Source of the DNA: Candidatus Omnitrophota bacterium
GTDB taxonomy: Bacteria > Omnitrophota > Gorgyraeia > Zapsychrales > Zapsychraceae
Direction: 5' to 3'
Assembly (NCBI GenBank): GCA_020429915.1
Contig: JAGQKV010000001.1
Coordinates: forward strand, 28,971 to 92,970
Length of the DNA stretch: 64,000 nt
A program made the position numbers and the translations under genes. Within the stretch, counting starts at the first letter, position 1. The number at the start of each line of letters is the position of its first letter. Below, in pieces: positions 1,895 through 64,000 of this stretch. The notes under the pieces are model-generated. The model saw only the letters and a list, made by a program, of their open reading frames with translations, was not told the DNA's origin and did not search any database.

Positions 1895-3178
1895 ATGGCG
1901 ATCCTGTTTGACATCATATACGCGGTTCTCTTTGTCCTTTATTTGCCGGTTCTGAAGTGGAAGGGCAAGCTTCACGCCGGTTATCCGATGCGTATGGGAA
2001 GGATTCCGCCGGATATCCAACAAGCCTTAGCCACGAAACCGAATATCTGGATTCATGCCGTCAGTGTCGGGGAGGTCCTGGCAGTGGCCGATTTGATCGA
2101 CAAGCTGATGCAACGCTTCCCCGATAAGCGCGTCGTATGTTCGGTCGTGACCGATACCGGCTATGCGGTCGCCCGGGAGAAGCTGCCCGGAGGGGTACAG
2201 GTGATCTACGCGCCGCTCGATTTCAGTTGGGTCGTTCGCCGATTCGTGAAGCTCATCCGGCCGGAGATCTATATCTTTGCCGAGACTGAGATCTGGCCGA
2301 ACCTGTTCGATCACCTGCACGCCGCCGGCGTGCCGATGATCCAGGTCAACGGCCGTATCTCCGACAAATCCTTCGGCGGATACAAACGGTTGCGTCCGGT
2401 GACGCGGCGGGTCCTCGGCAAGGTCGACCGCTTTCTGATGCAGTCGCAAACGGACGCCGACCGGATCTGCGAACTCGGCGCGCACCCAGCTGCAGTCCGG
2501 GTCCCCGGCAATCTGAAATTCGACAGTTTGCCCGAGGCAGTGGTGCCCGATCCGGCCCGTTTCGGTCTGGGAACAACGGACCAACCGCTGATCGCCGGCA
2601 GCACCCATCCGGGCGAGGAGGAAATACTGCTAGACGTGTTCGCAGTGTTGAAGCAGGCTCATCCGGCGGCCCGGCTGATTATCTGCCCGCGGCATGTGAC
2701 GCGTTGCGACGAAGTCCTGAGTCTGATCCGCGGCCGGGATATGACCGGCGTCGCGTTGAGCGCGGCACAGGAAACCGGTGCTCCTGCGGACGCGGTCATT
2801 GTGGTCGATACCATGGGGCAGCTGCGGGATTTGTACAGCGTGGCGCGGGTAGTCTTCGTCGGCAAGACGTTCACGGTCCAGGGCGGTCAAAACATGATCG
2901 AACCCGGCTTCTTCGGCAAGCCGGTGATCGTCGGACCGTACACGCAAAACTTCAAAGACGTGATGACGATTTTTAAACGCGAGAAGGCCATCGTGCAAGT
3001 GAATGATCCGGACGAATTGCGAGAGGAACTGCTGGATATCTGGGACAATGCTATCCGCCGTGAGTCGCTCGGGATGGCGGCCAGGCGGGTGGTGGAGAAG
3101 TTTCAGGGGGCCACCGAGAAGACATTACTCGAGATCGAAACATTGGGACCGGGACGCCAGGATGCGGCGATACATTAG
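1895..3178 (+). CDS. waaA: 3-deoxy-D-manno-octulosonic acid (Kdo) transferase WaaA/KdtA
   Basis: In-frame ATG at 1895 just after the xer stop. Protein MAILFDIIYAVLFVLYLPVLKWKGK...IWIHAVSVGEV...GGQNMIEPG matches the KdtA N- and C-terminal motifs. The track ORF starts earlier at 1742 and overlaps xer, which is unlikely to be real. Confidence 0.85.
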   Translation: MAILFDIIYAVLFVLYLPVLKWKGKLHAGYPMRMGRIPPDIQQALATKPNIWIHAVSVGEVLAVADLIDKLMQRFPDKRVVCSVVTDTGYAVAREKLPGGVQVIYAPLDFSWVVRRFVKLIRPEIYIFAETEIWPNLFDHLHAAGVPMIQVNGRISDKSFGGYKRLRPVTRRVLGKVDRFLMQSQTDADRICELGAHPAAVRVPGNLKFDSLPEAVVPDPARFGLGTTDQPLIAGSTHPGEEEILLDVFAVLKQAHPAARLIICPRHVTRCDEVLSLIRGRDMTGVALSAAQETGAPADAVIVVDTMGQLRDLYSVARVVFVGKTFTVQGGQNMIEPGFFGKPVIVGPYTQNFKDVMTIFKREKAIVQVNDPDELREELLDIWDNAIRRESLGMAARRVVEKFQGATEKTLLEIETLGPGRQDAAIH

Positions 3179-4217
3179 CGCACTCATGCATGACGAGCGC
3201 CGGGGAACCGTCGACGCGCTGCCCAAGGCATTGTTATGGATGTTGTCCGTCGTATACGGACTGTTCATGCGCGGACGCAACTTGGCGTATGATCGCGGAT
3301 GGAAACCATCCTCCGATGTCGGAGTTCCGGTCATCAGCGTCGGAAATATCACGATGGGTGGGGCGGGCAAGACCCCGCTGGTTGTTTATATTGCGCGTGA
3401 AATCGTCCGGGCCGGCGGCAAACCCGTGGTCTTGCTGCGCGGTTACATGCAACAGGATCGTTCCGCCACGGACAGCGACGAGGCCGAAGTGATCCGCCGC
3501 AAGGTCCCGGGCATCGACGTTATCACCGGGGCCGACCGGGTGGGTCGTGCCCGCGATTATTTGAAGCAGGCGCAGTGTGACGTTTTTATCCTTGATGACG
3601 CATTTCAACACCGTAAAATTAAACGACGGCTGGATATCGTCGTCATCGACGCCCTGAATCCGTTCGGTAACGGGCAGGTTATCCCCCGCGGGATTCTGCG
3701 GGAACCGCTTGGCGGTTTGGGCCGAGCCGATCTCACCGTGGTGACCCGGACGGACCTAAATGCCGGGGCGCTGCCGGAGATTGAAAATACACTGAAGACG
3801 CGGGGCAGGCAATCTTCGTCCATTCACTCGGTGCACCGGGCGGAGGGGTTCGTCAATCTAAAGAGCGGCGAAAGACGGGACGTCAACGGTTTTGCCGGCA
3901 ATCCGGCCGTCGCTTTTTGCGGCTTGGGGAATCCGGACGGTTTTCGCCGTACGTTGGAAGCCCTGCGCGTGGATTTACGGCACTTCGTGGCTTTTGAGGA
4001 TCATCATCGCTATACGGCGGGAGATTTTCAAATGTTGACGTCGCAGGCGGCCGAGAGCGACACGAAAGTGCTATTAACGACGTTGAAGGATGCGGTCAAG
4101 TTGACGGCGATCAAGGGGTTGCCGCTCGACCGCATTTACTATCTTGATATCGGGATTGAGATAACCCATGGGAAAGACGAACTCACAGATCGAATCCATA
4201 GCGTACTACGCGGTTAG
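3162..4217 (+). CDS. lpxK: Tetraacyldisaccharide 4'-kinase LpxK
   Basis: ATG at 3162 overlaps the waaA stop by 17 nt. ISVGNITMGGAGKTP is the LpxK P-loop signature. About 351 aa. Confidence 0.85.
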   Translation: MRRYISALMHDERRGTVDALPKALLWMLSVVYGLFMRGRNLAYDRGWKPSSDVGVPVISVGNITMGGAGKTPLVVYIAREIVRAGGKPVVLLRGYMQQDRSATDSDEAEVIRRKVPGIDVITGADRVGRARDYLKQAQCDVFILDDAFQHRKIKRRLDIVVIDALNPFGNGQVIPRGILREPLGGLGRADLTVVTRTDLNAGALPEIENTLKTRGRQSSSIHSVHRAEGFVNLKSGERRDVNGFAGNPAVAFCGLGNPDGFRRTLEALRVDLRHFVAFEDHHRYTAGDFQMLTSQAAESDTKVLLTTLKDAVKLTAIKGLPLDRIYYLDIGIEITHGKDELTDRIHSVLRG

Positions 4218-13469: not shown

Positions 13470-14200
13470 ACGTGATCGGCGTCATTCCGGCGCGTTATGA
13501 CTCGGTACGTTTTCCCGGCAAGGCCTTGGCCGAGATCGACGGCCGCCCGATGATTCAACACGTTTACGAACGGGCCAGCCGGAGCCTGAGCCTGACGGAA
13601 GTGGTCGTCGCCTGTGACGATGAACGGATCAGGGACGCCGCGGCGGCGGCCGGGGCCCGGGTGATCATGACCCGATCCGATCACGCCTGCGGGACAGACC
13701 GCATCGTTGAGGCGGTGCAGGGTATCGAGGCCGACATCATCGTTAATATTCAGGGGGATGAGCCGCTGATCCAGCCGGATATCATCGATACGCTGGTGGC
13801 CTGTCTCGGCGAGGACTCACAGCAGGTCATGGCCACGGTGGTCAAGAAGATCGAGGACCCGCAGGAGATCGCCGATCCGAATGTGGTTAAGGTCGTCCTG
13901 GACAAGCAGAACTTCGCGATTTATTTTTCGCGCTCCCCGATACCGTATAACCGGGCGGGCACACAACTCACTTATCACAAGCATCTGGGAATTTACGCCT
14001 ATACCAAGCCCTTCCTGCTGATTTATGCCGCCCTGCCGAAAACCGCGCTGGAGCAGGCCGAGTGTCTGGAACAACTGCGCGCCATCGAGCACGGATTCAA
14101 GATCAAGACCGTCGCCACGCAGCATGAGAGCATCGGCGTGGACACGCCTGAAGATTTGGCAAAGGTGACGGCACTCATTAACGAAAGCAGGGGCACATGA
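13466..14200 (+). CDS. kdsB: 3-deoxy-manno-octulosonate cytidylyltransferase (CMP-Kdo synthetase)
   Basis: MNVIGVIPARYDSVRFPGKALAEIDGRPMIQHVYERA...NIQGDEPLI, classic KdsB motifs. ATGA overlap with the upstream gene. Confidence 0.9.
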   Translation: MNVIGVIPARYDSVRFPGKALAEIDGRPMIQHVYERASRSLSLTEVVVACDDERIRDAAAAAGARVIMTRSDHACGTDRIVEAVQGIEADIIVNIQGDEPLIQPDIIDTLVACLGEDSQQVMATVVKKIEDPQEIADPNVVKVVLDKQNFAIYFSRSPIPYNRAGTQLTYHKHLGIYAYTKPFLLIYAALPKTALEQAECLEQLRAIEHGFKIKTVATQHESIGVDTPEDLAKVTALINESRGT

Positions 14201-15018
14201 AAAGCATTCGCATCGGCGACATCCAGATTGGCGGGAAGAATCCGCTGGTCCTGATCGCGGGACCGTGCGTGGTTGAAGACCGCGCAACCACTCTCAAGAT
14301 AGCCGCAGGCCTGAAACGCATCACGGACAAGCTCAAGGTCCCGTTGATTTTCAAGGCCAGCTATGACAAGGCGAACCGCACGTCGCTGAACTCCTACCGC
14401 GGTCCGGGCATCACCGCCGGTCTCGAGGTGTTGGAAGAGGTCAAATACAAATACGGTGTTCCGGTGATCAGTGACGTGCATAATATCGGCGAGGTGGACC
14501 AGGCCGCCCGGGTCTTGGATGTTCTGCAAATTCCGGCCTTTCTGTGCCGGCAGACCGATCTGCTGGTCTGCGCAGGAAGCACGGGCAAAGTGGTCAATAT
14601 CAAAAAGGGTCAGTTCCTGGCCCCGGAAAACATGCGCCAGGCCGCGGCGAAGGTGGCCAGCACCGGCAACAAAAGGATTTTGCTGACCGAGCGCGGCGCC
14701 AGTTTCGGTTATAATAACCTCGTCACCGATTTCCGAGCCTTGGCCATTTTGAGGGAATGCGGATATCCGGTCGTGCTCGACGCTTCACACAGCGTTCAGC
14801 AACCCGGGGGGTTGGGGCATGCCTCGGGCGGTCGACGCGAATTCATTCCGCTGCTGGCGCGCTGCGGTGTGGCGGCCGGCTGCGACGGAATCTTTATGGA
14901 AGTGCACACCGATCCGACAAAGGCCCTGTCGGACGGGCCGAATATGCTCCCGCTGCGACAGCTCGAAAAACTGCTCGCGGACTTGGTGGCGATCGACCGG
15001 ATCGTCAGAAAGAAGTGA
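14197..15018 (+). CDS. kdsA: 2-dehydro-3-deoxyphosphooctonate aldolase (Kdo8P synthase)
   Basis: LVLIAGPCVVEDRATTLKIAAGLK...FKASYDKANRTS...VVLDASHSVQQPGG, typical of KdsA/DAHP-synthase-I family Kdo8P synthase. Confidence 0.9.
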   Translation: MKSIRIGDIQIGGKNPLVLIAGPCVVEDRATTLKIAAGLKRITDKLKVPLIFKASYDKANRTSLNSYRGPGITAGLEVLEEVKYKYGVPVISDVHNIGEVDQAARVLDVLQIPAFLCRQTDLLVCAGSTGKVVNIKKGQFLAPENMRQAAAKVASTGNKRILLTERGASFGYNNLVTDFRALAILRECGYPVVLDASHSVQQPGGLGHASGGRREFIPLLARCGVAAGCDGIFMEVHTDPTKALSDGPNMLPLRQLEKLLADLVAIDRIVRKK

Positions 15019-60012: not shown

Positions 60013-60243
60013 CCGTCTCAGGTTCACCGTGGAGGAGGCGGGATCGATCCCACCGCGGGGGAGGTCCGGCCCTGATAGGTCCCCCGTCCGGCAAATAGTT
60101 ACCCGAAGGATGCCGCACCCGGGCCCAACCGGCGAAAATGTCCTATCCCGGACACACCCGGACATAAACCTGTGACTGGTTCAAAAGTCTTTATTTTACA
60201 ATGGATTATCTCTTTGTGGCTGGTCGGGGTGTGTGGTATCCTT

Positions 60244-60483
60244 AAAAAAGCCGATAAAGGTAAACCCGGGGAAACCCGGGGACTCCCGGATTTATGAGGT
60301 CCGGGACCAAGGGCATGCCTGGACTCTTGGACAAAACCACAGACCTAAGGTGTTTGCGACCATAAGGCCCGATCAGGCCGCCGGCCGGGGCAAAACAGAC
60401 TGGTAGAGAGGTCAAGGACGCGATGGTGGCTGGGTTGCCGAAGTGCGGTGAGGGAGACATCCTCGCCTTTATCGGCTATTTTT
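60244..60483 (+). other. Inverted-repeat-bounded ~240-nt GC-rich non-coding element: candidate structured RNA (riboswitch-like leader / sRNA) or MITE-like repeat; family undetermined
   Basis: AAAAAAGCCGATAAAGG (60244-60260) is the near-perfect reverse complement of CCTTTATCGGCTATTTTT (60466-60483), with a 12-bp perfect core. Inside sits a CCCGGG-GAAA-CCCGGG hairpin (60265-60280, GNRA-type loop) and several other GC-rich palindromes. No plausible ORF. U-rich tracts follow the 3' arm on both strands. Confidence 0.3.
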
Positions 60484-60539
60484 CCCCTTTTCGGGTGATT
60501 TCCCGGACCGGGGATTTCTTTTGGGCAGCCACATTTTAT

Positions 60540-60568
60540 TTGCCATCAGTATATATATCAATTATACT
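60540..60568 (+). promoter_or_regulatory. Sigma70-like promoter upstream of the giant ORF (-35 TTGCCA, 17-nt spacer, -10 TATACT) in an AT-rich tract
   Basis: TTGCCA at 60540-60545, spacer tcagtatatatatcaat (17 nt), TATACT at 60563-60568. The predicted transcript start is ~45 nt upstream of ATG 60618. No canonical SD; the leader contains CCCCUCC instead. Confidence 0.4.
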
Positions 60569-60617
60569 AATTTTATCCAATTCCCCTCCGTAACCGCTCT
60601 TAAATCCCCTTAAAACC

Positions 60618-63600
60618 ATGTTTAGAAAATTTCACCATCGGCGCGTCCGTGCATGCGCCGTTTATTTTATTTGGTTCCTGACCCTGAGTCTGGTGCCGGG
60701 TCCGGTTGCGGCTTCCGTGCCGGCCGATGAGCTGTTGCCTATGCCCGATCCCGGAGTCATGGTTCATCGCAGCACTTCGTACGCTCCGGCCATGATGAAC
60801 GGCGTAACGATTCATCCGGACAGGCCATTTCATTTTGATTTCGTCATCGACAAAGGAGAATCCGCCTCCCAAGATGAGTCATTCCGTAATGAGTCCATGC
60901 GGCTGGTCCGTTATTTCCTGGCCTCATTGACCGTCCCGGAACAGGACCTGTGGGTCAATCTCTCACCCGAGGAAGCGGACCGTACCATCCCGCCCGAATT
61001 CGCGCAGACCGACATGGGGCGCGACCTTCTTCTGCAGGACTATCTGCTAAAACAATTCACCGCCTCGTTGATGTACCCCGACAAGGAAACCGGACAGGAT
61101 TTCTGGCGGCGCGTGCACCGCCGTGCGCAGCAATTGTTCGGGACGACCGATGTGCCGGTCAACACCTTCAACAAGGTGTGGATCGTGCCGCAGGCCGCGG
61201 TCGTCTATCAAAACGGCAACTCGGCCTACGTGGTGGAAAGCACTTTAAAGGTCATGATGGAAGAGGACTATCAGGCTGCAGCCGCAGGGCAGCCTTCGCC
61301 GCCGTTGCCCGCGGACCGATTTGCCGATGAGATTGTTCGCGACGTGCTGATCCCGGAGATCGAATATGAAGTGAATCACGGCAAACAGTTTGCCCGCCTG
61401 CGGCAGATCTATCACACGCTGATCCTGGCGACGTGGTACAAGGAGAATATCCGCGCGTCGTTCGTTAACGAGATGTACTCCAACCGCAATAAAATCGCCG
61501 GGATCGATATCAGTGATAAGGACTCGAAGGAAGAGATTTACGCGGCTTACTTGGCCGCCTTCCGTCGCGGGGTCTACAACATGATCCGGGAGGATTACGA
61601 TCCCTACAGCCGGCGCATGATCCCCCGCAACTATTTCTCCGGCGGAATGAACATTAAACCCGTGGTGACCGTCACCGAATCGGCCGCCGCCCTGCCGCAG
61701 GGGGGTGATATGGCCCTGCTCGCGGTGAAACTGGATCCCATGAACAACGGCCGGATCGTGAATGTTGCCGAAGCCGCTGGGGACCAGGCACTGTTGAGCG
61801 AACAGCTCGATCCGGACGAACGCCGCCGCTACATCCGGTCCTTAATCAACCGGCGGGTAACGCGCCCGGAACCCGAGGAATTGGAGGGCATCGGTCCCCG
61901 GGAAATCGCCTTGGCCGCCCGCGGCCTCGCGGCACCGGTCAATCCCATCAGGGACTACACGCGGCTGCATGAATTGGCTCTTCCGCTGCTAAAGGCCAAG
62001 CTCAACGCGGTGCTGCGCCGGCATGCGGCTGAGCAACCGACATATGTGGTCCTGGCACGGGACGGTGATATGCTTTACGACATGCTCAGGCTCATGGACC
62101 CGAACGCGGCCGCCCAAGGCCGGATCAAGCTGATCAACATCAGCCTGCGGCAAAGCGAACGGATTGTCGATCCCGGAAGTCCGTTTTTTGACGCTGAACA
62201 GGCCGCTTCCATGCGGGCCTTTTTGCGCCAGGAAGGTGTGGGGACGGATGATTTGCAGTCGGGGAAATTTGTCTTTATCGACAGCGCCTACAAAGGGTCC
62301 ATCTTTGATACCATCCTGCGTCTCAATAATCTCAAGCCGGAGGATGTGTCCGGTCGCGTAACCGGTTACCTTGTGTTTCGTGACGATGCCCGGTCCGCTT
62401 ACACCGAAATGCCCGATATTTCCCCGAACGAAGCGATGGACGCGCTGACCGGTCTGGCCGCGGTCTTCGATCGCAGCCTGCAGGATCTGATGCCCGGATT
62501 CGTCAAAGAGCAATGGGCGTCGTTGAGTCTCCAGCGGCGGTTGAATTTTATGCTGGCTCTGTACTTGCAGGTGCAACCGAAGTTCCTGCGGAATGCCAAC
62601 GCGGTCGAGTATATCGATGGCCGCTGGTATTCCCTGAACAGGGCGTACGAAAGTTATTTTCAAGATTTGGAACCGCTGGACGAATTGACCTTTCATAATC
62701 CGCATCAGATGGACCCGGTTGCCGCGCTGCAGTTGCAGGCGATGACCGCCGGATATTTCCGTGAACAACAGCCGGGTGACGCTGCGATCCTGGTCCATGC
62801 AGGCGGGCGGATCAGTTTCGACGGTCCATATTTGGAGCCGGCGTTTCCGTTCTACGCGATGCGTCACGGCGAGACGCCGGCCAATGCCCGCAATATATTT
62901 CAAGGTTCCACCGACGATCCGAAGTTGAATTATCTGTCCCCGAAGGGTCTGGAAGACGCGCGGAAGGGAGCGCAAACCCTGTACGATCAGATCGCCCCGC
63001 TTCTCAGACGCGGGAAAAAGGTCCTGCTGCTGACCAGCGGGCTCACCCGGACCAAGCAAAGCCTGCAACCATTTCTGGACTTGATCGCCGCCAAGATTGC
63101 CGCCGGCGAGTTACCGGAGGACATCCGGTTGGAAGTCCGGGCGGATCCTGATCTGAATGAAATCAATTTCGGATCACTGAGCAATACCGATCCCGCGGAT
63201 TACACCGCTGAACAGGCGGCGTTTGAACAGGCGTACCGCCGCGGCAAGAACGCGACGCTGCCCGCGCCCGGGGGGGAAAGTTACCTGGATCTCATCGAAC
63301 GCGGCCTCAAATGGTTGGAGGGAATGAATAGCCGCTTTGCCGACGGGGAGACGGCGGTGGTGGTTTTCGGGCATGGAACGTTTCTCTCCACTTTGCAGAT
63401 CCTGACCGGCATCAAGGATATGGCTGATGCGACCGGATATATCGACTGGATCAGCAACCGGCCGCGTAACGGAGAGGTCGTGACTTTCCGGCCCGATCAG
63501 GCGATTCTGACGGAGGCACCCGGCAGGGACGGCGTGGAGACTCTCACTATCCCGCGCTTTGAAGGCACTTACGCGGAAATCGGGCGCTTCTTTGTGTACT

Positions 63601-64000
63601 ACCGTTCCGCCTTGCCGGCCGCGTTGAGCGGCGGGCAGACAGCTTCCCGCTGGGCGGATGAGGAAACGGTGGCAGCGGCCCGGTCGCGCGGCAAAGAAGT
63701 GATTTCACTGGCTGATTACTCCCGCTTTCGCAACCGGCCCGTGTATGAATCCGTCGAGGCGGATGAAGAGCCCGTCCGGGTTTGGGATCACACCCAAGCC
63801 GCTGTCGCGGCACTGCAGAGCGTTGATCTCAAGGGCAAGACGGTAGTGGAGCTGGGTGCCGGCGACGGGATTTTATCGGTGGTATCACTGCGTTTGGGGG
63901 CCCGCAAGGTCGTCGCCGTCGACGGCATGAACACCGCCGGATTGATTGAGATGAATATGGGTGAGAACGAGCCGGGCTTCGGCGACTACACCGGCAGGAC
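60618..64000 (+). CDS. Giant secreted multidomain protein, 3' end outside the window (>=1127 aa): signal peptide + ~700 aa unassigned region + PGAM-type histidine phosphatase domain + start of a PrmA-like SAM-dependent methyltransferase domain
   Basis: I translated the + strand in frame 3 from ATG 60618 codon by codon to nt 64000 and found no stop. The in-frame stop upstream is TAA 60591-93, so 60618 is the first possible start. N-terminus MFRKFHHRRVRACAVYFIWFLTLSLVPGPVAASVPA is a typical signal peptide. Residues ~745-960 (nt ~62850-63500): FYAMRHGETPANARN (RHGxT catalytic His), ...PGGESYLDLIERG..., ...VVVFGHGTFLSTL (second His), i.e. the histidine phosphatase clade-1 motif set. Residues ~1070-end (nt ~63825-64000): KTVVELGAGDGILSVVSLRLGARKVVAVDGMN, a class I MTase motif I/post-I most like PrmA. 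Not in the supplied ORF track because it has no stop inside the window. The minus-strand 61989..63068 and plus-strand 60950..61330 track ORFs are shadows of it. Confidence 0.8.
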   Translation, partial: MFRKFHHRRVRACAVYFIWFLTLSLVPGPVAASVPADELLPMPDPGVMVHRSTSYAPAMMNGVTIHPDRPFHFDFVIDKGESASQDESFRNESMRLVRYFLASLTVPEQDLWVNLSPEEADRTIPPEFAQTDMGRDLLLQDYLLKQFTASLMYPDKETGQDFWRRVHRRAQQLFGTTDVPVNTFNKVWIVPQAAVVYQNGNSAYVVESTLKVMMEEDYQAAAAGQPSPPLPADRFADEIVRDVLIPEIEYEVNHGKQFARLRQIYHTLILATWYKENIRASFVNEMYSNRNKIAGIDISDKDSKEEIYAAYLAAFRRGVYNMIREDYDPYSRRMIPRNYFSGGMNIKPVVTVTESAAALPQGGDMALLAVKLDPMNNGRIVNVAEAAGDQALLSEQLDPDERRRYIRSLINRRVTRPEPEELEGIGPREIALAARGLAAPVNPIRDYTRLHELALPLLKAKLNAVLRRHAAEQPTYVVLARDGDMLYDMLRLMDPNAAAQGRIKLINISLRQSERIVDPGSPFFDAEQAASMRAFLRQEGVGTDDLQSGKFVFIDSAYKGSIFDTILRLNNLKPEDVSGRVTGYLVFRDDARSAYTEMPDISPNEAMDALTGLAAVFDRSLQDLMPGFVKEQWASLSLQRRLNFMLALYLQVQPKFLRNANAVEYIDGRWYSLNRAYESYFQDLEPLDELTFHNPHQMDPVAALQLQAMTAGYFREQQPGDAAILVHAGGRISFDGPYLEPAFPFYAMRHGETPANARNIFQGSTDDPKLNYLSPKGLEDARKGAQTLYDQIAPLLRRGKKVLLLTSGLTRTKQSLQPFLDLIAAKIAAGELPEDIRLEVRADPDLNEINFGSLSNTDPADYTAEQAAFEQAYRRGKNATLPAPGGESYLDLIERGLKWLEGMNSRFADGETAVVVFGHGTFLSTLQILTGIKDMADATGYIDWISNRPRNGEVVTFRPDQAILTEAPGRDGVETLTIPRFEGTYAEIGRFFVYYRSALPAALSGGQTASRWADEETVAAARSRGKEVISLADYSRFRNRPVYESVEADEEPVRVWDHTQAAVAALQSVDLKGKTVVELGAGDGILSVVSLRLGARKVVAVDGMNTAGLIEMNMGENEPGFGDYTGR

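Follow-up and report, generated by a model that had tools for sequence, protein, structure and literature searches.

A putative class I cyclic di-GMP riboswitch with a junction insert and two predicted terminators upstream of a giant gene in Candidatus Omnitrophota

In the class I riboswitches for cyclic di-GMP (c-di-GMP), known as GEMM-I (Rfam family RF01051) and numbered here after Vc2 (PMC6140456, PMC4744006) with window coordinates assigned by alignment, G20 and C92 read the two guanines of the ligand, while riboswitches for cyclic GMP-AMP (cGAMP) have A20 (PMC6140456). A47 and the interhelical C44-G83 pair are the other conserved contacts (PMC4744006). In Bc1 of the Bacillus cereus group, a first terminator (T1) unfolds with c-di-GMP and a second (T2) stays intact and masks the response (PMC11218506). 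Here we describe an element within a 64,000-nt stretch of Candidatus Omnitrophota DNA, hereafter the window, located in the 605-nt gap between trpF and a giant open reading frame (ORF). Because of its homology and covariation, the structured element (60246-60483) is almost certainly a GEMM-I aptamer. A first-pass annotation made from the letters of the window had already expected a structured regulatory RNA ahead of the giant ORF, be it a riboswitch, another leader or a small RNA, and the element fits that description. The best overall explanation, to which we assign a probability of around 0.6, is a GEMM-I riboswitch that would be transcribed from its own promoter, be followed by T1 and T2, and act as a damped ON switch.

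The aptamer and its class

A comparison with Rfam, as proposed in the first-pass annotation, returned no match in the window at the curated gathering thresholds. In E-value mode RF01051 was the only signal in the 64 kb, covering 60249-60442 (+) and the full model (1-87). Its score of 34.3 bits falls 0.7 bits short of the gathering score of 35, which leaves the element outside formal membership, and the E-value was 6.9e-5 over the searched 751 nt, or 0.0058 when calculated for the whole window. Matches to anti-hemB, sR53 and GHRLOS had E > 6 and were treated as chance. The shortfall can be ascribed to the gap penalties for two large insertions, and on account of the sub-threshold score the riboswitch is missed by standard annotation. 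Canonical members that lack the junction insert reached 62-75 bits in Rfam; homologues from other Omnitrophota genomes, located before paralogous genes, scored 62.1 (L027), 66.4 (L100), 75 (L087) and 71 bits (L089), and the riboswitch of L019 scored 61.4 bits on the sister model, L027 and L019 both being called above threshold. The loose likeness to c-di-GMP-I that had been remarked upon earlier was thus right with respect to the family, but the segment GGGGCAAAAC on which it was based lies in an extension of helix P3 and not in the GGCAAAC box; the other suggested box, GGACGCGAUGG, does overlap the true 3' strand of P3.

Homologues were reached via the family of the N-terminal domain (N-domain) of the downstream protein. 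In this way 79 paralogue loci were fetched (fetched loci are given L numbers), among which L019 and L027 possess a region upstream of the gene that can be aligned to the window. A metagenome scan with a pattern composed of the 5' box and helix P2 provided a further 120 loci, and a subfamily covariance model (R1) was built from 35 of these. R1 matched the window over its full length with 118.5 bits (E 7e-29) and in a single copy, a second one being absent from the window and the adjoining 10 kb. Two same-strand R1 matches that lie 120-200 nt apart, in a tandem-like arrangement, were observed at L090, L139, L118, L143, L080 and L174, and two that lie around 0.5-1.3 kb apart at L093 and L116.

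The covariation set consisted of 107 R1 matches (104 distinct), in an alignment that was itself fitted to R1. Standard pairs filled 96.9% of the cells in the 107 homologues, compared to 78.6% after shuffling and 31-47% when the partners were slid. Covariation in relatives, which the first-pass annotation had named as a check, was clearly present: compensatory changes were found at 24 of the 33 base pairs among the 104 distinct homologues, including 5 of the 6 pairs of the P2 stem, 12 of the 15 pairs of helices 4-6 (the P3 region) and 6 of the 10 pairs of the long-range helix discussed below. The supported structures comprise helices P2 and P3 and the closing pairs G21-C46 and N22-N45, all of which are formed by the window; the U22:R45 pair was UA in 61, UG in 40 and CG in 3 homologues. 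RNAalifold recovered the same helices from a plain MAFFT alignment, independently of R1, and the family-invariant core positions are all intact in the window.

The GEMM-I boxes of the window read GGUAAAC (60259-65), GGGGAC (60278-83), ACAAAACC (60331-38), CCUAAG (60344-49) and GAUGGUGGCUGGGUUGCCGAAG (60422-43), and the GNRA hairpin that had been pointed out before (CCCGGG-GAAA-CCCGGG) constitutes the upper stem of P2. The segment 60422-60443 is identical at 22/22 positions in the orthologous loci L202 and L203 and at 21/22 in L205. According to the alignment the contacts G20, A47 and C92 are represented by G60259, A60333 and C60438. The C44-G83 pair and the type 1 GNRA tetraloop/receptor contact are likewise present, as assigned by alignment alone, the first base of the receptor being a G where the canonical base is U. 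Given the residues at positions 20, 47 and 92, the ligand is very probably c-di-GMP. Instead of the A20 of GEMM-Ib, the window and each of the 35 subfamily members in the alignment have a G, and the GCGAA required by the consensus of c-di-GMP-I-GGC (RF03167) is ACAAAA in the window and RCAAA in the homologues. Considering the G, A and C at positions 20, 47 and 92, the window element is neither a GEMM-Ib nor a 'GGC' variant. Its P3 extension, a 63-nt insert relative to RF01051, defines a 'long-P3' class (there are two size classes) and is identical to that of L202 at 62 of 72 positions. The position of the P4 hairpin is occupied by a hairpin of varied sequence in the homologues.

Promoters, terminators and a proposed mode of action

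The 17-nt inverted repeat reported by the first-pass annotation was recovered (60244-60260 and 60466-60482, 94% complementary, 205 nt between the arms). Within it, 60466-60477 pairs with the 'CG' of P1, all six nucleotides of J1/2 including G20, and G21, in a helix of 12 bp. The sequence CUUUAUCGGC of the 3' arm, complementary to GCCGAUAAAG, is found in 66 elements that carry the aptamer 3' motif (63 distinct), and the long-range helix occurs in the compensatory variants UCCG/CGGA, AUCCG/CGGAU and GUUG/CAAU. The duplex between the arms amounts to -19.6 kcal/mol, compared to -1.3 kcal/mol for the canonical CG/CG P1. Since the helix consumes the P1 'CG', J1/2 with G20, and G21, it is likely, judging from the structure of Vc2, that helix and ligand-bound pocket are mutually exclusive. 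In 46 of the 63 elements the 3' arm runs into a U-rich tail, and in some members, such as L089 (Shine-Dalgarno (SD) sequence and ATG around 30 nt later) and the RsmE group, this structure is the sole terminator before the gene. On the basis of the U-tails and the members with T1 alone we read the helix and its U-tract as a ligand-sensitive terminator T1. We consider a terminator role to have somewhat better than even odds, and the predicted sensitivity to the ligand would follow solely from the nucleotides that the helix shares with the pocket.

Directly upstream of the element lies a promoter-like sequence (60214-60242) that was not part of the first-pass annotation and that has a TG extension in its spacer at 60234-35. 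A -10-like hexamer at this place was found in 59 of 61 distinct homologues, mostly TATATT, TATACT or TATAAT and mostly 16-18 nt before ATAAAGG; it is usually accompanied by a TTGxxx -35 and in 38 cases by the TG extension. The site is predicted to act as a sigma-70 promoter with a start around 60248-60250, and given this position directly upstream the RNA would begin at the 5' arm of the inverted repeat.

Downstream of T1, the short hairpin formerly proposed (60500-60514, then TTTCTTTT) is present as part of a larger one (60483-60514). The suggestion that it could be an attenuator or terminator holds for the latter role: the hairpin represents an unconditional terminator, T2, and the ligand-sensitive structure would be the inverted repeat itself. 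T2 is found in 48 of the 63 homologues, 7-70 nt after the helix, and in L202 and L205 its sequence differs but hairpin and U-run are kept. It folds with or without a free 3' arm, and in eleven members of which the platform was folded without the 5' arm it was always formed. As to an antiterminator, no segment consistently complementary to the 5' half of T2 was seen by eye in the 3' arm, helix P2, helix P3 or the insert; a GGCGGG/CCCGCU pairing in L172 looks coincidental. In the window both terminator structures and their U-tracts are present and conserved.

A predicted second promoter (TTGCCA-17-TATACT, promoter P2) follows T2, as had been noted before, and its hexamers, which like those of the upstream site match the sigma-70 consensus, are kept in the orthologues L202 and L205 (-35 TTGCCA/TTGCTA/TTGCAA, -10 TATACT), while the T2 region is identical there at 13-21 of 39 positions. 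The leader indeed lacks an SD, as no GGAGG-like motif was found before ATG 60618. The predicted 5' untranslated region (UTR) holds a C-rich motif, AAUUCCCC(U/A)CCGUAAC (60580-60595), that resembles an anti-SD and is conserved in L202 and L205; the UTR is identical at 31 of 43 positions even in L205, the more distant of the two.

Combined, these features suggest the following course of events. The riboswitch RNA would be transcribed from its own sigma-70 promoter, with the 5' arm at its very beginning. In the ligand-free state, the 12-bp helix would close the RNA end to end and, together with the U-tract, constitute T1. With c-di-GMP bound, the 5' arm would be locked in the pocket, T1 would not form and RNA polymerase would proceed. 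The ligand-independent T2 would then halt most of the transcripts that had passed T1, and c-di-GMP would thus increase the minority of upstream-initiated transcripts that extends into the giant ORF, in addition to a basal expression from promoter P2. That the net outcome is an ON effect on the giant ORF by read-through is a tentative proposal, somewhat short of an even chance.

Several observations weigh against this scheme. The Rfam score lies under the curated threshold, the alignment behind the pair counts was fitted to R1, and the search pattern partly fixed the 5' arm, so that the invariance of the latter is not independent evidence. As the 3' arm is not followed by a U-rich tail in 17 of the 63 elements, a terminator role of T1 cannot apply to every member. 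The junction insert adjoins the tertiary-contact residue C44 and could impair the predicted binding of c-di-GMP. T2 is strong and an antiterminator was not found in the eleven folded members, and read-through into the giant ORF may therefore be negligible; moreover, the conserved promoter P2 stands between switch and gene. Finally, many downstream genes of homologues, namely in the GH1 group (L085-L188) and in a group with a 100-aa protein (L103-L177), have TGnTATAAT 7-11 nt before the ATG, which suggests a leaderless mRNA that would exclude the riboswitch.

The main rival explanation, which we regard as rather unlikely, is a stand-alone c-di-GMP-sensing small RNA, for which the region from the promoter at 60214 to T1/T2 would be a complete non-coding gene. 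The ligand would select between a short closed form that ends at T1 and a longer one, terminated at T2, in which the 3' arm lies exposed before a terminator hairpin, the giant ORF would be expressed from promoter P2 solely, and regulation would occur in trans, via ligand buffering or via RNA stability. The presence of an own promoter in nearly all homologues, the strong and unconditional T2 with its conserved structure, the conserved promoter between T2 and the giant ORF and the leaderless-type promoters at homologous loci all agree with it. There is precedent as well: the genes downstream of Bc1 do not respond to c-di-GMP (PMC11218506), and Vc2 governs the stability of an upstream small RNA (bioRxiv 10.1101/617340). 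However, the subfamily is linked in the same orientation to particular genes across a wide divergence (the 100-aa gene at 13 loci and in the window genome, GH1 at 16 loci), some members without T2 run directly into an SD-led gene (L089), and a trans target is not known.

An improbable alternative is transcriptional interference gated by the riboswitch, in which polymerases that passed T1 would occlude promoter P2, so that c-di-GMP would lower expression, and T2 would keep the interfering transcripts from becoming mRNA. It would account for a regulated T1 followed by an unconditional T2, and at the GH1 loci the -35 of the TGnTATAAT promoter (spacer of 17-18 nt) coincides with TTGGGA, the 3' half of T2. 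In the window, however, the U-tract of T2 ends 18 nt before the -35 of promoter P2, and at several loci 100-250 nt separate T2 from the promoter downstream, which a polymerase terminated at T2 would never reach. Moreover, we know of no precedent for a riboswitch that acts by promoter occlusion.

Table 1. Positions of the riboswitch-related features and the giant ORF in the window (residue equivalents refer to Vc2)
Feature	Position	Strand	Details	Basis
Promoter of the riboswitch RNA (predicted)	60214-60242	+	-35 TTGTGG 60214-19; 17-nt spacer; -10 TATCCT 60237-42
5' arm of inverted repeat	60244-60260	+	includes P1 CG, J1/2 AUAAAG and G21	Rfam alignment
P1 'CG', 5' side	60252-53	+
J1/2 AUAAAG	60254-59	+	G60259 = G20
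G21, U22	60260-61	+
P2 upper stem CCCGGG/CCCGGG	60265-60280	+	GAAA tetraloop 60271-74
GAC of P2 internal loop	60281-60283	+	C60283 = C44	alignment to RF01051, L019/L027
Insert hairpin A, UCCCGGAUUU-AUG-AGGUCCGGGA	60284-60306	+		complete hairpin fold
Insert hairpin B, CCAAGGGC...CUCUUGG	60307-60330	+		hairpin fold
A45-C46, then AAA	60331-60335	+	closes G21-C46 / U22-A45; A60333 = A47
P3 5' strand	60336-60349	+	receptor half CCUAAG 60344-49
P3 distal extension, ~70 nt	60350-60421	+	conserved core AAGGCCC...GGGGCA
P3 3' strand	60422-60443	+	receptor half GAUGG 60422-26; G83 equivalent ~60429
C92 equivalent	60438	+	C60438
P1 'CG', 3' side	60439-40	+
P4 hairpin GUGAGGGAGACAUCCUCGC	60448-60466	+	spacer between aptamer and 3' arm
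3' arm CCUUUAUCGGCU, then U-tract AUUUUU	60466-60483	+
T2 intrinsic terminator	60483-60522	+	hairpin 60483-60514 (-17.9 kcal/mol); UUUCUUUU 60515-22
Promoter P2	60540-60568	+	TTGCCA-17-TATACT
5' UTR from promoter P2 (predicted)	60575-60617	+	no SD
Giant ORF	60618-64000 (window end)	+	1878 aa in the source contig

The junction insert and its bearing on function

Besides the long-range helix, the second unusual feature of the element is an insert of 47 nt (60284-60330), made up of two hairpins, between C44 and A45. Both covariance models placed it within the loop of P2. This placement was rejected, since L019 matches the window exactly over 36 nt through GGGGAC and then continues with GCAAAACC, the window having 47 extra nucleotides before ACAAAACC. 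Hairpin A is not present in L019, L027 and L205. Inserts of 46-62 nt at the same site occur in L095 (identical to L113), L122, L135 and L203, and their sequences are mutually unrelated; in each of the five unrelated versions the full insert is taken up by exactly two neighboring hairpins, with z-values of -3 to -7 relative to shuffles in the four that were tested. Like the window, such members do poorly in Rfam: L135 scored 29.3 bits, L095 gave a weak partial match and L122 none.

The presence and absence of the insert across syntenic orthologues allow it to be dated. L205, whose 100-aa protein is 73% identical, shares the order trpF, riboswitch, giant ORF and 100-aa gene and has no insert. 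L203 (100-aa protein 80%) has a two-hairpin insert of 46 nt, in which hairpin A differs from that of the window by a compensatory change of A-U to G-C and hairpin B is an unrelated hairpin at the same place. L202 (100-aa protein 96%) carries the insert of the window itself, hairpin A being identical at 23/23 positions and hairpin B differing by one substitution in the loop. Between window and L202 the aptamer core is identical at 103/103 positions (segments 40/40, 19/19, 22/22 and 22/22), the insert at 46/47 and the 3' arm at 17/18, as opposed to 23/44 for the upstream flank and 21/39 for T2, which indicates that selection constrains the insert as strongly as the core. A hairpin tip UUU-AUG-AGG (UUUAUGAGG, 60291-60299) caps hairpin A of the window and also, on an unrelated stem, hairpin B of L203; it may be a conserved functional loop.

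This conservation bears directly on the very improbable view that the insert beside C44 destroyed ligand binding and that the element is a relic. The low scores of the window and of the insert-bearing L135, L095 and L122 would fit such decay, but they are accounted for by the gap penalties of two large insertions; and a relic would not be expected to keep a core 100% and an insert 98% identical to L202 next to flanks that are 52-54% identical, two complete hairpins in each of the five unrelated insert versions, and all family-invariant positions. Equally improbable is an altered ligand, such as 3'3'-cGAMP as in GEMM-Ib or whatever ligand the c-di-GMP-I-GGC or -UAU variants sense. Some homologues indeed score slightly better on RF03167 than on RF01051, and the insert could reshape the pocket, but position 20 is a G and not the A of the cGAMP riboswitches (PMC6140456), the A47 position holds an A where the RF03167 consensus has a G, C92 is kept, and the gene contexts of the subfamily include a GAF-HD-GYP protein and polysaccharide-related genes. 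The mobile insertion (miniature inverted-repeat transposable element) that the first-pass annotation had offered as an alternative can practically be dismissed: a 17-nt inverted repeat does flank around 205 nt, but there is one copy only in the 64 kb and the adjoining 10 kb (L200/L201), more than 60 homologues conserve the arms as an RNA helix that shows compensatory changes and begins at a conserved start of transcription, the sequence between the arms is an aptamer that itself covaries, a flanking direct repeat was not reported beside the inverted repeat, and the 200 nt upstream of the element contain no repeats within the window.

A more daring proposal, rather unlikely on present evidence, takes the Omnitrophota GEMM-I subfamily as an autonomous unit, extending from its own promoter to its own terminators, and not as a 5'-UTR element; the genes behind it would have promoters of their own, often of the leaderless type, the ligand would pick the 3' end of the RNA (T1 or T2) and the conserved insert would be a new functional module of the aptamer. 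If true, genes would be controlled by a route that has not been described for riboswitches, such as promoter occlusion, an RNA acting in trans or tethered in cis, or the buffering of ligand, and the insert could, for instance, offer a protein or another RNA a place to dock.

Genomic setting and comparison with known systems

The gap runs from the trpF stop (60012) to ATG 60618 and holds short spurious ORFs only. As had been claimed, it (60013-60617) is the longest stretch without genes in the window. Two seemingly larger gaps in the crude ORF map turned out to be filled by a 273-aa ORF (14197-15018) and a 404-aa ORF (3003-4217), which we take to be kdsA and lpxK, respectively, as read off the sequence without a family search; a third contains the L31 gene. 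All the features listed by the first-pass annotation were recovered at their given coordinates or within a few bases of them. The features of the gap before the giant ORF exceed chance, considering the fold relative to shuffles (z = -2.76) and, more tellingly, the conservation of every described element in homologues; five terminator-like sites were observed in the gap region versus 1.3 expected from shuffles. Directly 3' of trpF lies a GC-rich segment of around 125 nt (60017-60141) that includes the palindrome GGGATCGATCCC (~60040) listed by the first-pass annotation. The segment is missing from the closest orthologue L202 and from L205, and no further copy was present in the window or in any fetched locus besides the source contigs. 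In the source genome trpF is separated from trpB/trpA by around 9.5 kb (L200 10613-20193; window 60013 onward), an interval that contains the riboswitch, the giant ORF, the 100-aa gene, an M28 peptidase and two genes of no assigned function. It looks like an island inside the trp operon, and the arrangement is syntenic in L202 and L205.

The giant ORF encodes a signal peptide, an Omnitrophota-specific N-domain of around 350 aa, a His_Phos_1 domain and a methyltransferase. The N-domain (window 60618-61670) is always N-terminal and defines a very large Candidatus Omnitrophota family (>1400 hits; at least 577 places in representative genomes), in which it is fused to unrelated C-termini: His_Phos, methyltransferases, HAD, ankyrin, WD40, HEAT and HATPase. 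It had no Pfam or NCBIfam match, and its AlphaFold model (predicted local distance difference test (pLDDT) 69) had no PDB match at E <= 0.001. The idea that the riboswitch is specific to giants with this domain was rejected, as 3 of the 79 paralogue loci carry one; the four giants behind the subfamily (window, L019, L027 and L100) have only the N-domain in common. At the orthologous locus L204 (6167-9567) the giant ORF is followed by small genes, among them one for a SUKH_5/SMI1_KNR4 protein and one for a Cys-rich protein. Proteins of the SUKH/SMI1 type are commonly found as immunity proteins in polymorphic toxin systems, and given this neighbor and the variable C-terminal cargo the N-domain proteins may be secreted effectors. 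The paralogue L050 has a canonical short GEMM-I upstream (2356-2490; 61.7 bits on RF03167), where, as read from the sequence, the 5' half of the terminator (ACCUAUUCC) can pair with GGAAUAGG of the aptamer or with its own 3' half, and an SD-led GTG start follows the terminator. If so, the platform of L050 would be a textbook one, unlike that of the window.

The gene of the 100-aa CxxC...CxxC protein starts 10 nt after the stop of the giant ORF (L200 16864-17166), around 6.2 kb from the riboswitch and beyond the end of the window, and its own promoter (TGTTATAAT-8-ATG) overlaps that stop codon. Members of its family, with 42-60% protein identity, directly follow the riboswitch subfamily in 13 other metagenome loci, and in L203 the riboswitch is located 62 nt before the 100-aa gene without a giant ORF in between. 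Given these arrangements, the 100-aa gene may be the conserved partner, with giant ORFs inserted in some lineages. The family is unannotated and nearly confined to Omnitrophota, apart from one weak partial match labelled Lysobacterales. A relation to PilZ, an idea taken from West-Roberts et al. (2023), was discarded as there was no PilZ signal, and weak zinc-ribbon matches only (E 0.014 or worse) were found. Other genes downstream of the subfamily encode GH1 (16 loci), GH77, a Wzx-like flippase, a Big_2-CAP secreted protein, RsmE and a GAF-HD-GYP protein.

The riboswitch class as such is known. What is new is the architecture with a junction insert, which is missed by the curated thresholds; the recurrent layout of promoter, switch, T1, T2 and second promoter; the connection to the Omnitrophota N-domain proteins and the 100-aa gene; and, with the better-than-even odds given to T1 itself, the use of a pocket-sequestering 5'/3' helix as the terminator. 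Literature searches yielded no report of these four features, of this riboswitch in Omnitrophota or of GEMM elements with leaderless genes. Insert-bearing variants are systematically missed in candidate phyla; the relatives of the window element that bear an insert score lower still or not at all. Being under clear purifying selection, the insert constitutes a natural experiment on what the GEMM-I three-helix junction tolerates beside C44. Through the subfamily, c-di-GMP signaling is furthermore tied to the very large N-domain family, whose members combine a signal peptide with variable cargo, and to a conserved zinc-ribbon-like 100-aa protein.

With Vc2 and RF01051 the window element shares the three-helix architecture, the GGYAAAC...GNRA...GGGGAC-RC-AAA and ...GCCGAA boxes, the GAAA tetraloop of P2 and the receptor in P3, the equivalents of G20/A47/C92 and C44/G83, and a short CG/CG P1. 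It differs from Vc2 in the 47-nt two-hairpin insert between C44 and position 45, the distal extension of around 70 nt in P3, a U22-A45 instead of a C22-G45 pair and a receptor half that reads GAUGG and not UAUGG. In contrast to the RF01051 platforms, its distal segment pairs with the 5' side of the pocket and not with the 3' strand of P1. GEMM-Ib and RF03167 have the same fold (Rfam clan CL00126), but GEMM-Ib has an A20 where the window has a G, and the RF03167 consensus has a G at the position aligned to A47, where the window has an A. As in the upstream small RNA of Vc2 (bioRxiv 10.1101/617340) and in other riboswitch-containing non-coding RNAs, the aptamer would belong to a separate non-coding transcript, and further promoters lie before the gene; in Vc2, however, it is located at the 3' end of the small RNA and affects stability, whereas the window aptamer is at the 5' end and its ligand would decide between T1 and T2 as the end of the transcript. 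A parallel in layout is Bc1, where a GEMM-I aptamer is followed by two intrinsic terminators a few tens of nucleotides apart; a comparable response of T1 in the window is predicted from its overlap with the pocket. Unlike in Bc1, T1 of the window is a long-range helix around the whole aptamer that uses the 5' end of the RNA, a promoter follows T2, and the element, from an Omnitrophota organism, is known from sequence alone. The layout recurs at dozens of loci and, like Bc1, raises the question of how a c-di-GMP riboswitch with two terminators controls its gene.

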